Of a stretch of 49,226 nt of DNA, positions 36,001-42,000 are shown piece after piece. Position numbers: made by a program. The stretch is from Escherichia coli (lineage in GTDB: Bacteria; Pseudomonadota; Gammaproteobacteria; Enterobacterales; Enterobacteriaceae), in assembly GCF_003334765.1 (NCBI RefSeq), contig NZ_QOWT01000030.1; one strand, written 5' to 3'. Numbering within the stretch: the stretch's first letter is position 1; each line of letters opens with the position of its first letter.

Positions 36001-39000
36001 CGCCTCCAGTGCATACTTCAGCCGTTCACGGGGCGCTTTCACTTCCCGGGCAACCTGCTGATATGGCAATGATGTGTTTTCATTCCCAACCACGCGACGA
36101 ATACGGTGAGACAGATGATACCGGTATGTATCCGGCACACCAGAAAGGCTGGCCTTCAGGCTGTACACGCAGCCAAACCGTTTATCGTTAAACACCACAT
36201 TTTTCTGGCTGATGCCCCATTCTTCACGCAGCGCGGCAATCAATTGCGGTGTACGGGTAAGCAGCAAGCGAAAAGGCAGTTCAAAACTGGTGACGTAATC
36301 CACATTCAGCAGTGCAATACGCAACCGTTCTTCTGGCCCGGCCTCTGTCTGCCGGCACTCCTCCAGAACATCCTGCCACTGCCGGCGAAGACGGGGGGAT
36401 TCGTTCCGTTCTGTAAAACAGTATTTATCCGCCAGATAGTCAATTCGTGTACGCATACTGAAAGGAATTCCGTATAAAGATTCAGCAGACAAAACTTTAT
36501 CAGCCAGTAAAAATTAACGGAAGCATTGATATTCCTCCCGACAATCACCGGATGATTGTTGCAATAACCTGCGACATAAAGGACTGAACAGCCGTTTTTA
36601 ACGCCACGTATTGCCCTGATGAACCAGGCCGGGCCACCCGAAAACATCTTTCCACCCGGCATTGTCCGCCAGCACTTATCACCGACCAGGTCTGTTGCAG
36701 TAAATCCACCAGTTGCGCACATTCTTCATCAGCCATGACGCCGACTCGCGGATGGCAAATACTCGTCTGGCTGAGCAGCAACAGACATCGTATCTGTGCT
36801 CCTTCATGTTGTTCCCGCAACCAGCGTAATACCACCGGCGCTGATGGGCTGACCGTGTGATTATGCTCCGTAATACGTTCGTGTACCCGTCGGTGAAAGG
36901 AACTACAAAATGTCTGAATCTGTTGACCATAGATTCCTTCTGCCGAATAGAGCGTGAAGTGAAATGCCAACAGATTTGGCCAGTGGTCCACCGCCTGCTG
37001 AACAAAACGCCGGATTTCCCCCGGCTCTGAAATTAAGGCTTCGGTTATTTGCACGAAATGTTCCTTTTCAACCCCTGTTGAATTTTGTCAAGCCGGTGCA
37101 GACACAGTAAAGCGCGCATCAACACCTGAAAGGTACGATACAAACACAAGTTACAAACAATAAGAACGGAAGGACAATTAATCAGTGAGGAATAATAACT
37201 AAATTAACCAAAAGAATGTTACTGACAATACTACCAATACTTAAATAGCAATATATTAATTAATGTAAGAACAGATGCCCGGTAAGACATATACACAATA
37301 CATCCACAAACACACTCTTTTCATTAAATCAATCACCTGATTAAACCATGAAAGTGTGATGTAAGTCAAAATTACTGATACTATCAATTGATAATGATTA
37401 TCTCTATCATTATCGTGAAATTCGAGAATGAAAGGAGAAGTAGTCATTATAAGCCTTTTATAAATCGTCATCATCATAGTAAAGTAGAACACTTTTTATA
37501 TGAGTTACTATATGAAAATATACTGGACAAGAAAACGTATTCCTGAACTTTCAGCACTTCCACCTTCATTAAGAAAGAAAAATTTTACTGACGCATATAA
37601 TGCAGCATCTTCTCATATCGAATACTGGATAGGTGCTGGCGTCTCATTTATCTCGATGATGATTTTATCCAGAGTATATGACTTTCTTTTACCCGCCCAA
37701 GATACTTTCCCGGGTGATATCATCAGAAGTTTATGTGTTGTGTGTCCATCCATATTAATCTGGTTTCAGTTTTCGGTATATGTCATGAGGAAATATTACA
37801 GACATATTCTGGTGCGAGGAAAAGAAACCGAAACCATTTCAGAAAGGTTGATACGTGAGGCTGATACACGAGAATATGAACTATGGCGTCCGGTCCGTCG
37901 CTTTTTCTCCATTGTTTTCCTCATTGTTCTATTAGGTTGCATTCATTCACTGATAACAACTATAAAATAAAAGTTATGGCTGTTCTGATACAGGAAAATA
38001 AACGTTCATTCTATGGTTACCTCTTCCTGTTATATAGAAGAATTTTAAACGACAAGTAAGGGAATATAAATGAAAATAACAAAAAATAAAAATGCAACTA
38101 TAAAAAACAGTCATCAGTCGGCTGCTTTTCAATGTTTACCTTATCATTTTCTGGTAATGCTGCCAACTTACTGATTTAGTGTATGATGGTGATTTTAAGG
38201 TGCTTGCGTGGCTTCCATTTCCATCAGATGTCCTTCCTGCTCCGCTACTGAAGGCGTGGTGCGTAACGGCAAAAGCACTGCCGGACATCAGCGCTATCTC
38301 TGCTCTCACTGCCGTAAAACATGGCAACTGCAGTTCACTTACACCGCTTCTCAACCCGGTACGCACCAGAAAATCATTGATATGGCCATGAATGGCGTTG
38401 GATGCCGGGCAACTGCCCGCATTATGGGCGTTGGCCTCAACACGATTTTACGTCACTTAAAAAACTCAGGCCGCAGTCGGTAACCTCGCGCATACAGCCG
38501 GGCAGTGACGTCATCGTCTGCGCGGAAATGGACGAACAGTGGGGCTATGTCGGGGCTAAATCGCGCCAGCGCTGGCTGTTTTACGCGTATGACAGTCTCC
38601 GGAAGACGGTTGTTGCGCACGTATTCGGTGAACGCACGATGGCGACGCTGGGGCGTCTTATGAGCCTGCTGTCGGCCTTTGAGGTCGTGGTATGGATGAC
38701 GGATGGCTGGCCGCTGTATGAATCACGCCTGAAGGGAAAGCTGCACGTTATCAGCAAGCGTTACACTCAGCGCATTGAGCGACATAATCTGAATCTGAGA
38801 CAACATCTGGCAAGGCTGGGACGGAAGTCACTGTCGTTCTCAAAATCGGTGGAGCTGCATGACAAGGTCATCGGGCATTATCTGAACATAAAACACTATC
38901 AGTAAGTTGGAGTCATTACCTGAGAATAATACCTCCTGGGTAAGTGAGCAGATACTTTCAGCGCCTCCGAAAGATGTAAATATTCGACTTGGAGTCGGTT

Positions 39001-42000
39001 CTTTAGAAGGTACAACCGTCTCACATGTTCAGCGATTGCATCATTCGTTAATCGCAGCTGGTTTGGAAAGTAACCTCACTGTCTATACCGGTGGTCACGA
39101 TTATGCCTGGTGGCGCGGAGCAATTATTGATGAATTAGCAAATTATAATTGCAGGAAGGTATCAAATAATAACTCTGTGTAAAATATCGTTTTATCGTCA
39201 GATAACTCTTTCTGCAATATTATTATGGGAGACTATCTCATTTATTTAGTGATGTCCTTCATTTATGTGATGAAGGACATTATATTACTCATAACATTTC
39301 TCGTTGAAAATTTCAGCAATACGCTACAATTGTTTCCCGTTGTTTTTTAATTTTCTCATCAAAACCTCTGCAATCTCTGCAGGACTGGGTTGTTCAGCCA
39401 TTTCAGCGGCTACCTGATCTGAACAGAAGCGTAGTGAATCATCATAAAGAAGGCGATTTACCAAATCACTGGTCAGTCCATGCTTGTCCGGAATAATCCC
39501 ACACCCACGCTTCGCAACAATTTCTGCATTAACAGAGCGATCTGCACCTTCGCCAAACACAATCTGTGGTATTCCACTATACAGCGCTGTCAGGGTATTA
39601 CCTGCGCCACCGTGATGAATAAATCCATCAGCTCCATTAAGGAATACACCCATAGGTATCCAGTCAACCAGACGTACATTTGATGGTAGTTTTCGTAAAC
39701 CAGTACGAGCATTTATTGCAAGTTGCAAAATGATATCAGCATCAACTTCATTTGCAGAATCCATAACCCATGAAATCAGCTCCAGACCATCAACCATTGG
39801 TTTTACAGTGCCAAGGCTGATAAGTAAACGTTTCCGATCAGAATCCCTGTCCCACCATGTTTCCTTTACAGCACCTCCGTTATAAGGAATATATCTCATT
39901 GAGATAACCGGTTCTCCAGCATTTTTAAGAATGCTCATACTTGGGGGAGCAACATCAATCCATGCTAAATCACATAGTGGACCGCTGACTCCATGCCGCC
40001 TGTAAGCATTGCTTAAAGAACGGTTTAACATCTGAATATGGGCAGATGTATGCGCGAATCCAACAGCCAGCATCACTGAAGGAATTCTATATTTAGCAGC
40101 AACCAATGGGCCTGCCGGATCAAGAGGGGGATAGACTATTAAATCTGGCCTCCATTTTCCTGCAAAATCGATGAGGTTATCTGCCATTTCATCGCTAAAA
40201 AAAGAGAAATGACCAATAATATTACTTTTTTTCCTCAACTCTTCCTGATGGCGATATCCAGCCTCTGAATCTAAACCTGGAACTGCATCAAAAACAACCA
40301 GTCCAGCTTCTGCTGCTTTATTCGCGAATTTGCCAGCGCTACTAATTACTACATCATGTCCAATTACACGAAAGGCCTGAGCCAGAGAAATCAATGGGTA
40401 TAACAAACCGTACAGCGGTGGGCCAATAAAAAGAATACGTTTTCGCATTAAAAAAGTCCGTCTTCTGCTTACCTGTTTATTTTTCTATCTCTAAGAAAAC
40501 ATAATTAATATTATTTTTATGTGAGCTTATGCACAAAAATAACCAAGTATATTATCTTCTGGTAGAGATTCAGGATACAGTTTGTAGGAGCTTTCTTTTT
40601 TGAACAATGATTTGCAGGACAGTTATGCTAAACTAGCGGAATCAGTATCACAACAATAAATGACTGATCATACCTGAAATTTGAATTAACAGGCATCATG
40701 AATGTCAATAGTCTAAGCGGTGACTACTTATATCGCTTGCATAAATACTAAACACTGACTAGAAAAGTATTGGATAACCCCGTCACTAAAAGTAACGCTT
40801 CGGTTATTTGCTCGGAATGTATTAACGCCAAGATTGTTAGCCGTTACGCCTTATATCACTGGCGCTGACAAATGTTTCTTTTCTAATTTACTGAACCGGC
40901 GCAGACACGCAGGAAAGCACGCCGGCACCGGTGTAATGCCAGTTCTAATCAATAAGAATGGAATGACGAATCAGTCAGGAAGGGATAACAACCCGCTGCT
41001 GAACGGAAGGTATCAGCAGGAAGATGAACGGGAATATCGCCAGCACCAAGGGCAGGGCCGGGTTCCACAATACCAGCGCTGGCATTTTGCACATTGCCAG
41101 CGTACCGGCATTACAACACGTTTCATGCTGCTGCCCCCCAGGATTCCTCGATTCGTTGCTACATCCACTGCTCTACTTCACTTCCACTGCTCCACTTCAC
41201 TTTTGTACCAGCGGCTGCTGCGCCCCAGTTTGATGGGTTTAGGGAAATGGCCTTCACTGATCAACTTGTAAAACCATTTGTCGGTCATACCGGTGAAACT
41301 GGTGATATAGTTCATGTCGATCAGGGAATTATCGGCACGCAGAAATACGCTGTCGTGGCTTGTTGTAGTCAACATGGTCAGAATGTCCTGTGAGATTTAT
41401 GAAGATTGTGCGAATGCGGGAAATCTACTGAGCTGTGCTTTCAGAACTGGCCTGTTACGGGATACCAGGGATTACCGGCGGGGTAACGGGCTTCCGGATC
41501 ATACACACCACGATTATCGCGGACAAAATCACTGAACGCCCATATCACCTCTTTAAGTATGTCTTCGCAGTCCGGTAAATGACGATCCAGCGCCACATCC
41601 CGGGTGGTACAGCTTTGATGCGCCCGGTGACACAAAGCCCGGATTGTTCCAGACATCCTGAATCAAACGCCCCAGATTAGGGGCGTCGAAATATGCCTCT
41701 CTGACCATTATATTCCGGCGTATAGGTAGCAGGTCTGAAGTGACAATGCGTCACCTGACGTTAAAAGTCACCCAAGATGACCCCAGTGGGGGCAACAAGT
41801 ATAAAACCGTTTTTTGATTAAGTGGTCGGATATGAAAAGGGGAAGGTTTATGTGAAAAATACCTGTGTTTTCTTTGAAAACACACAACAGTATCAGGTTA
41901 TTTATGTTTATACAGTGCGTTCCAAACTGACCTGAATAATTACGCAAGTTGCAACAATAAAACATTTTTGCCGTAGTGTGAGGTACTCCGGTAAATTGCT

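Follow-up and report, generated by a model that had tools for sequence, protein, structure and literature searches.

The window analyzed here, a 49,226-nucleotide stretch of contig NZ_QOWT01000030.1 from the Escherichia coli assembly GCF_003334765.1, carries between positions 38070 and 40448 a truncated gene, a complete copy of the insertion sequence IS1, a second gene fragment, and a single intact glycosyltransferase gene. With a probability of about 0.9, we read this region as what is left of a gutted microcin H47-type (class IIb, siderophore-microcin) islet within an iha-linked pathogenicity island. The identity of the pieces, the endpoints of the deletion, the collinearity with intact clusters, and the distribution across genomes are direct observations; the mechanism of transposition and the functional state of the orphan enzyme are inferred. 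The genes for microcin H47 production, immunity (mchI), and export have been lost at this locus. An earlier interpretation of the same DNA, hereafter the sequence-only reading, had instead taken it for a salmochelin (iro) locus reduced to an iroB-like gene. The core of the region consists of four features:

38070-38152, plus strand: 5' stump of mcmM (CPBP family), 27 codons, frameshifted and cut by IS1
38153-38920, plus strand: complete IS1 of 768 bp with insA, insB', and the A6C site, located exactly where ~10.7 kb of the microcin cluster are gone
38921-39182, plus strand: 3' stump of an esterase gene (mchS1/mcmK-type enterobactin esterase), residues 339-424 of 424, i.e., the last 86 codons
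39324-40448, minus strand: GT1 (GT-B) glycosyltransferase, MchA/McmL orthologue, an intact open reading frame (ORF) of 374 amino acids that carries G110D

E. coli O104:H4 FDAARGOS_349 (locus L005 of our comparison) has a complete cluster in genomic surroundings that match those of the window, with a DUF4222 gene and three hypothetical genes to the left, a helix-turn-helix regulator and iha to the right, and several flanking proteins with identical accessions. Window positions 34898-38152 correspond to L005 1-3238 (96.7% identity, plus strand) and positions 38916-48871 to L005 15117-25078 (99.7%, plus strand). What the window lacks is L005 3239-15120, 11,882 bp in total, including a lineage-specific ISKpn26 of ~1.2 kb that inserted later. 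Without this element, the cluster DNA lost from the window amounts to ~10.7 kb. The missing interval contains mcmM beyond codon 27, a 107-amino-acid ORF, mchF, an HlyD-family gene, an acyltransferase gene, a gene of 516 amino acids, mchB, mchI, mchS3, and the greater part of the esterase gene. In UPEC_U013 (a record with 98.6% identity), the glycosyltransferase gene and a full-length esterase gene, which an IS3-family element interrupts in this record, converge. They are followed by mchS3, mchI, mchB (annotated as "microcin H47"), the 516-amino-acid gene, a lysine-acyltransferase gene, an HlyD-family gene, and mchF; the cluster then ends with the 107-amino-acid ORF and a full-length CPBP gene of 228 amino acids. 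Window positions 36594-38151 align to the left end of this cluster and 38916-41604 to its right end, and the published gene order of class IIb clusters is the same, with mcmM beyond mchF (PMC7472721, PMC6776366, PMC12999681).

Both ends of such a cluster can still be recognized in the window. The pair that marks the H47 type, an IroB-like glycosyltransferase convergent with an IroD-like esterase, is present with 98% to 100% identity (for the esterase over the last 86 codons only), and the CPBP gene mcmM of the far cluster end survives as the 27-codon stump. This stump comprises the 83 bases to the left of IS1 and was overlooked in the sequence-only reading; its DNA lines up collinearly with the beginning of the 228-amino-acid gene that UPEC_U013 carries in full, and in O111, O157, and MS 200-1 the NCBI Prokaryotic Genome Annotation Pipeline (PGAP) annotates it as [quoted passage not shown] a truncated pseudogene. 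What lies between the ends is absent: in tblastn searches of the window, neither MchB, MchI, and MchS3 (O104:H4 queries) nor the linking enzymes MchC/MchD (MceJ/MceI) and the exporter MchE/MchF gave a match. Because MchB, MchI, and MchS3 are missing from the window, the region is a remnant rather than a functional member of this cluster family, and both stumps are, on the evidence of their truncated frames, dead.

The ancestral islet comprised a repeat, a 152-amino-acid ORF, mcmM, the 107-amino-acid ORF, mchF, mchE, mchD, mchC, mchB, mchI, mchS3, and mchS1, and ended with convergent mchA and a second repeat, an arrangement still intact at the same place in O104:H4. With the H47 island as known from E. 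coli H47, 042, and O104:H4 (mchA-mchS1...mchXIBCDEF-mcmM), the relic shares the glycosyltransferase, the C-terminus of the esterase, the start of mcmM, the 152-amino-acid ORF, the iha island, and probably the imperfect bounding repeats, but it has IS1 in place of ~10.7 kb from mcmM codon 27 to mchS1 codon 339 and is left without precursor, immunity, MchCD, or MchEF function. In the intact clusters nearest to the relic, the 107-amino-acid ORF lies between mchF and mcmM (L002 3197-3520, L005 4452-4775), and microcin Ec W of NCTC10444 has been reported at the same position and with the same size (PMC12999681). Should this ORF prove to be the microcin Ec W gene, the relic may descend from a cluster of the H47/Ec W type.

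The intact glycosyltransferase is IroB-like, as the sequence-only reading had recognized, with 71.7% amino acid identity to IroB of Nissle 1917 (69.9% by tblastn to IroB encoded on ColV-type plasmids; 68.5% at the nucleotide level in E. coli genomes). Its relationship to the enzymes of intact microcin clusters is far closer, with 98.4% amino acid identity to UPEC_U013 and 99.7% to O104:H4, from which it differs by a single residue (G110D); the gene shows two nucleotide changes against O104:H4 (one synonymous and the one giving G110D), and the 312 bp upstream are identical to those of the intact O104:H4 cluster. Among proteins of solved structure, a search of PDB sequences ranked the GT1 enzyme SnogD first (E=2e-61), and an AlphaFold model (mean predicted local distance difference test score, pLDDT, 91.7) matches the GT-B enzymes CalG3 (template modeling score 0.87) and SnogD. 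The C-terminal nucleotide-sugar motif HHGGAGT is present with H279, G280, G281, and G283 invariant. NCBIfam gave no IroB- or MchA-specific match, only generic GT1 subfamilies that all scored under the cut-off and cannot separate Iro from Mch enzymes. Outside E. coli, the enzyme is most similar to a Salmonella plasmid protein (85%) and a Klebsiella oxytoca protein (75%), and the clusters of both carry an Enterochelin_N/Esterase gene, a 516-amino-acid gene, an HlyC-type acyltransferase, an HlyD-like gene, and a C39-peptidase ABC exporter. In the Salmonella cluster the glycosyltransferase is convergent with the esterase, whereas in Klebsiella the esterase stands at the far cluster end, on the same strand as the glycosyltransferase and not adjacent to it. 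A neighbor-joining tree places the window protein with these Salmonella and K. oxytoca microcin-cluster proteins, and IroB of E. coli, Klebsiella, and Salmonella forms a separate branch. The enzyme is therefore no closer to macrolide-type glycosyltransferases, which the sequence-only reading had named as an outcome that would refute it, but belongs to the IroB/MceC family and falls on its microcin-associated branch. Previous work described mchA, mcmL, and mceC as IroB homologues and mchS1, mcmK, and mceD as IroD homologues that tailor enterobactin for microcin attachment (PMC7472721, PMC6776366), with MchA, McmL, and MceC catalyzing the first reaction of IroB, the C-glucosylation of enterobactin (PMC7472721).

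The esterase fragment tells the same story. It is the convergent 3' fragment abutting IS1 that had been noticed before, covers residues 339-424 of 424 only, and is identical at the amino acid level to the cluster esterase of UPEC_U013 (100%) and nearly so to that of O104:H4 (98.8%), compared to 70% for residues 333-402 of IroD and no match to IroE. NCBIfam assigns the 38921-39182 ORF to the enterochelin esterase family PRK10439 (profile positions 340-409 of 418, E=3.7e-7), and in other genomes PGAP labels the same stretch "alpha/beta hydrolase-fold protein, missing N-terminus."

Could the region nonetheless be a salmochelin locus, iroBCDEN cut by IS1 to iroB and an iroD/iroE stump? The glycosyltransferase is a true homologue of IroB (70% to 72%), the esterase stump matches IroD at 70%, and a comparison of Shiga toxin-producing E. 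coli (STEC) named the gene "a homolog of iroB" (PMC9144400), so that alignment to the iro references does bear out the homology. It does not bear out orthology: against ~70% to the Iro proteins stand 98% to 100% to the microcin-cluster genes, and the glycosyltransferase and esterase are thus paralogues of IroB and IroD of the iroA locus. The relic also differs from that locus in gene order and orientation, given that iroB, C, D, and E are codirectional in the reference and the window pair is convergent; its left flank is mcmM and not an iro gene; and in the same island of O104:H4 an intact mch cluster fills the gap. As had been stated, no dedicated export, hydrolysis, or uptake genes follow, with no homologue of IroC, IroE, or IroN in the window, where IroN produced only receptor matches of 28% to 32% at 46164-46943, where collinear genomes have iha annotated, and at 17637-18056, in the aerobactin (iuc-iutA) part. 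However, the lost genes are the 5' part of mchS1, mchS3, mchI, mchB-F, and mcmM and not iroC, D, E, and N. On these sequence comparisons we consider the salmochelin reading refuted and give it next to no chance. The features that the sequence-only reading described in the DNA are confirmed and its interpretation holds in part, since the region is a relic associated with IS1 that retains an orphan gene of the IroB family, but the parent locus is a different one.

The relic is widespread. In DNA searches of 5,426 complete E. coli genomes, the glycosyltransferase together with the esterase stump was found in 646 and with IS1 abutting them in 512, while the deleted 5' part of the esterase was present in 157; in these genomes the IS1 relic outnumbers the version with the complete esterase gene about threefold. 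The matches to the glycosyltransferase and esterase stump fell into groups of 587 records with at least 99% identity and 60 records with 95% to 99%, with true iroB/iroD at 60% to 80%. Both junctions are fully covered in the best 25 of the 512 matches with IS1 in this position, O145 and O111 strains among them, and O157:H7 strain 2159 has the same arrangement. Among the matches listed, each relic chromosome has a single matching place and no second iroB/iroD-like one. For strain 97-3250, one assembly contains the IS1 relic and the other a separate locus with the 5' part of an mchS1-type esterase at 98% identity (NZ_CP027599.1, NZ_CP074773.1); if both loci belong to one genome, the orphan glycosyltransferase would coexist there with a second cluster.

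The relic is an ordinary decay product of a known mobile microcin island, common in enterohemorrhagic E. coli and flagged as pseudogenes in hundreds of public genomes. The truncated MccH47/MccM cluster of Nissle 1917, CFT073, and ABU83972 likewise represents decay of the same island family that is associated with insertion sequences (PMC7472721, PMC6776366). These Nissle-type clusters are its mirror image, having lost mcmL/mcmK but kept microcin, immunity, and export while borrowing IroB from iroA, whereas the relic has kept only the glycosyltransferase, with no iro locus in the window or on the relic chromosomes among the matches listed.

The IS1 copy is complete, with agreement at 20 of 23 terminal positions of its inverted repeats, open insA (38208-38483, 91 amino acids) and insB' (38402-38905, 167 amino acids) frames, and the A6C frameshift motif TTAAAAAAC at 38457-38465; at the same site in other genomes, the PGAP label is "IS1 family transposase, programmed frameshift." A simple IS1 insertion generates an 8- to 9-bp direct target-site duplication. 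Comparison of the flanking bases (TCATTTTCT to the left and TGAGAATAA to the right) revealed no such duplication at any length of 6 to 14 bp, in agreement with the sequence-only reading; this is expected if a deletion followed the insertion, and the assignment to IS1 is unaffected. That reading had left open whether a deletion or an inversion took place. The ~10.7 kb that are gone speak for deletion, and inversion is ruled out, as both flanks keep the strand and the order that they have in the intact cluster.

The most plausible route is an IS1-mediated adjacent deletion by intramolecular transposition, in which IS1 would have come to join mcmM codon 27 to mchS1 codon 339 with loss of the ~10.7 kb between them, because a single complete IS1 lacks a duplication and has collinear flanks, which 10.7 kb separated in the ancestor. 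Such a combination of a single IS1, no duplication, and distant yet collinear flanks is the classical signature of IS1 adjacent deletions, and the relic, with its lone complete IS1, lost 8- to 9-bp duplication, and collinear flanks, shows nothing unusual in this respect. In a less probable route, IS1 would have inserted twice in the same orientation, into mcmM and into mchS1, and the two copies would have recombined homologously into one hybrid IS1 with non-matching flanks, which equally predicts the single IS1, the missing duplication, and the collinear flanks. Moreover, the IS1 of the window is a mosaic relative to the copies that O111 11128 and O157:H7 2159 carry at this site, with 33 to 34 single-nucleotide polymorphisms (SNPs), so IS1-IS1 recombination or gene conversion does occur at this locus. 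All 33 SNPs relative to O111 are confined to a ~350-bp patch (38308-38660), which suggests gene conversion by a different IS1 isoform later than the insertion and deletion. Recombination between two copies would also require two insertions plus the recombination event, compared to one insertion and one further event for an adjacent deletion, and neither of the intermediates that it predicts was found in complete E. coli genomes. Adjacent deletion is the more parsimonious explanation, though not a proven one.

Just past the left breakpoint (compared at window 38144-38152), mcmM of the intact clusters reads (T/C)ATTACC, against the terminal CATTACC of IS1, an agreement of six positions in L005 (3230-3245) and of all seven in L002 (1975-1988). 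This resemblance is probably due to chance, but an end-like target could also account for it.

The islet retains its boundaries and several smaller features on either side of the deletion:

37000-37195, no strand assigned: left imperfect direct repeat (att-like), from a repeat search
37390-37408, no strand assigned: Fur-box-like site GATAGAGATAATCATTATC, agreeing with GATAATGATAATCATTATC at 17 of 19 positions, ~90 nucleotides upstream of the following ORF
37500-37970, plus strand: intact hydrophobic ORF of 156 amino acids (152 amino acids according to PGAP), inside the islet between the left repeat and mcmM
39252-39280, no strand assigned: hairpin with a perfect 11-bp stem, ATGTCCTTCAT-N7-ATGAAGGACAT, between the convergent esterase stump and glycosyltransferase gene
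40760-40985, no strand assigned: right imperfect direct repeat (att-like), from a repeat search

Within the repeats, 37019-37061 pairs with 40778-40820 (84%) and 37149-37175 with 40941-40967 (81%), and in a four-way alignment the same repeats bracket the intact cluster of UPEC_U013. The H47 genomic island has been described as bounded by attL/attR repeats of 148 and 144 bp that are 76% identical (PMC3191183, PMC5426353), and its published structural types are complete, partial with attR only, and empty with attC (PMC3191183). None of these three types corresponds to the relic, which has lost the core but retains both repeats. It thereby adds to the decay forms of the H47 island one that is absent from the original description, in which the core has been removed by IS1.

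Several points weigh against this assignment or against parts of it. The neighbor-joining tree carries no bootstrap values, and the source names given by a search of 5.8 billion proteins and by the 90% cluster of the glycosyltransferase did not include "MchA" or "McmL," the only labels being "glycosyltransferase" or "nucleotide disphospho-sugar-binding domain." The name MchA/McmL follows from synteny with annotated mchB, mchI, mchF, and mchS3 and from the published gene order, not from direct comparison with AJ009631, and the repeats of the islet fit the published attL/attR by description and not by sequence. Regarding the course of the deletion, chimeric junction queries found no intermediate with IS1 at either breakpoint of an otherwise intact gene in the 5,426 complete genomes, with zero matches for the mchS1 side and seven for the mcmM side that turned out to be two pieces ~450 bp apart and not a junction; the order of insertion and then deletion is for this reason a reconstruction.

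What the orphan enzyme does, if anything, is a separate question. The glycosyltransferase is probably a passively retained orphan and not part of a working siderophore pathway. The sequence-only reading had proposed that enterobactin glucosylation may be retained, which is biochemically reasonable because the enzyme is orthologous to enzymes that C-glucosylate enterobactin (PMC7472721). It is unlikely, however, that the orphan has been kept as useful by turning enterobactin into a salmochelin-like, lipocalin-evading siderophore without iro, with uptake perhaps via Iha or other catecholate receptors. The ORF is intact with the same 312-bp upstream region as in the intact cluster, MchA, McmL, and MceC share the first catalytic step with IroB (PMC7472721), iha and aerobactin genes lie in the island as well, and the gene is intact in the annotated O157:H7 and O111 genomes that we inspected, with DNA that is 100% identical in O157:H7, O111, and O145 genomes among the matches listed. 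Yet the relic copies among these matches are 99.5% to 100% identical overall, so that their intactness may reflect recent common descent, and the only amino acid change since the intact state, G110D, affects a conserved glycine. In some STEC, including one of the two EDL933 copies, the gene is reported to have suffered point deletions and insertions of IS elements (PMC9144400), and an N-terminally truncated form of 287 amino acids is found on 218 contigs. Neither IroC, IroN, IroD, nor IroE is encoded in the window to complement the enzyme, nor is there a second iroB/iroD-like place on the relic chromosomes among the matches listed.

The exchange at residue 110 itself makes the activity of the enzyme uncertain. 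This column holds glycine in 102 of 108 family members, and in the AlphaFold model the residue lies in the β4-α4 loop between a strand (103-106) and a helix (112-120). G110D may affect the enzyme. A selection test has no power with one nonsynonymous and one synonymous change relative to O104:H4, and the 10 synonymous and 6 nonsynonymous differences to UPEC_U013 are mostly older than the deletion. Regarding expression, the best Fur-like site upstream of the gene is AT-rich and weak (40500-40518, 13 of 19 positions), and a scan for sigma-70 promoters gave none above threshold on the minus strand for the glycosyltransferase. It is improbable, if biochemically conceivable, that the orphan, which over 500 complete genomes of O157:H7, O111, O145, and related strains carry, is both expressed and active and turns part of the cell's enterobactin into monoglucosyl-enterobactin, giving these iro-negative pathogens a cryptic siderophore that evades lipocalin-2 and is possibly taken up via Iha. 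An active orphan could also provide a second microcin cluster with glucosylated enterobactin in trans, for which strain 97-3250 is a possible case. Any physiological significance of the relic depends on the orphan enzyme being active.

The main value of these results is therefore a correction of annotation, in that the gene is all that still looks functional of a deleted microcin H47 island. The "iroB homolog" of STEC virulence screens (PMC9144400) is this mchA/mcmL-type relic and no evidence of salmochelin capacity. Enterohemorrhagic E. coli are known to be susceptible to microcin-producing probiotic strains, and the loss of the microcin H47 genes, mchI among them, at this locus of relic-bearing strains fits this susceptibility.

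The 156-amino-acid ORF to the left of the mcmM stump may be an iron-regulated islet gene that survived the deletion. It has 94% amino acid identity to its positional counterpart in UPEC_U013, an ORF is found at that place in O104:H4 too, and neither NCBIfam nor Pfam gave a family match. The only other Fur-box match in the window of equal quality (17 of 19 positions) lies in the aerobactin part (23889-23907) and serves as a positive control for the scan; in a collinear genome this stretch corresponds approximately to the space separating iucA from a major facilitator superfamily transporter gene. The hairpin at 39252-39280 resembles a bidirectional terminator. Elsewhere, the window resembles genomes that carry iucABCD-iutA together with a gene for an Ag43/Cah-type autotransporter, and to the right of the islet positions 42359-42364 (6 bp) and 42805-42822 (18 bp) are absent from O111 11128 within surrounding DNA that is ~99.3% identical.

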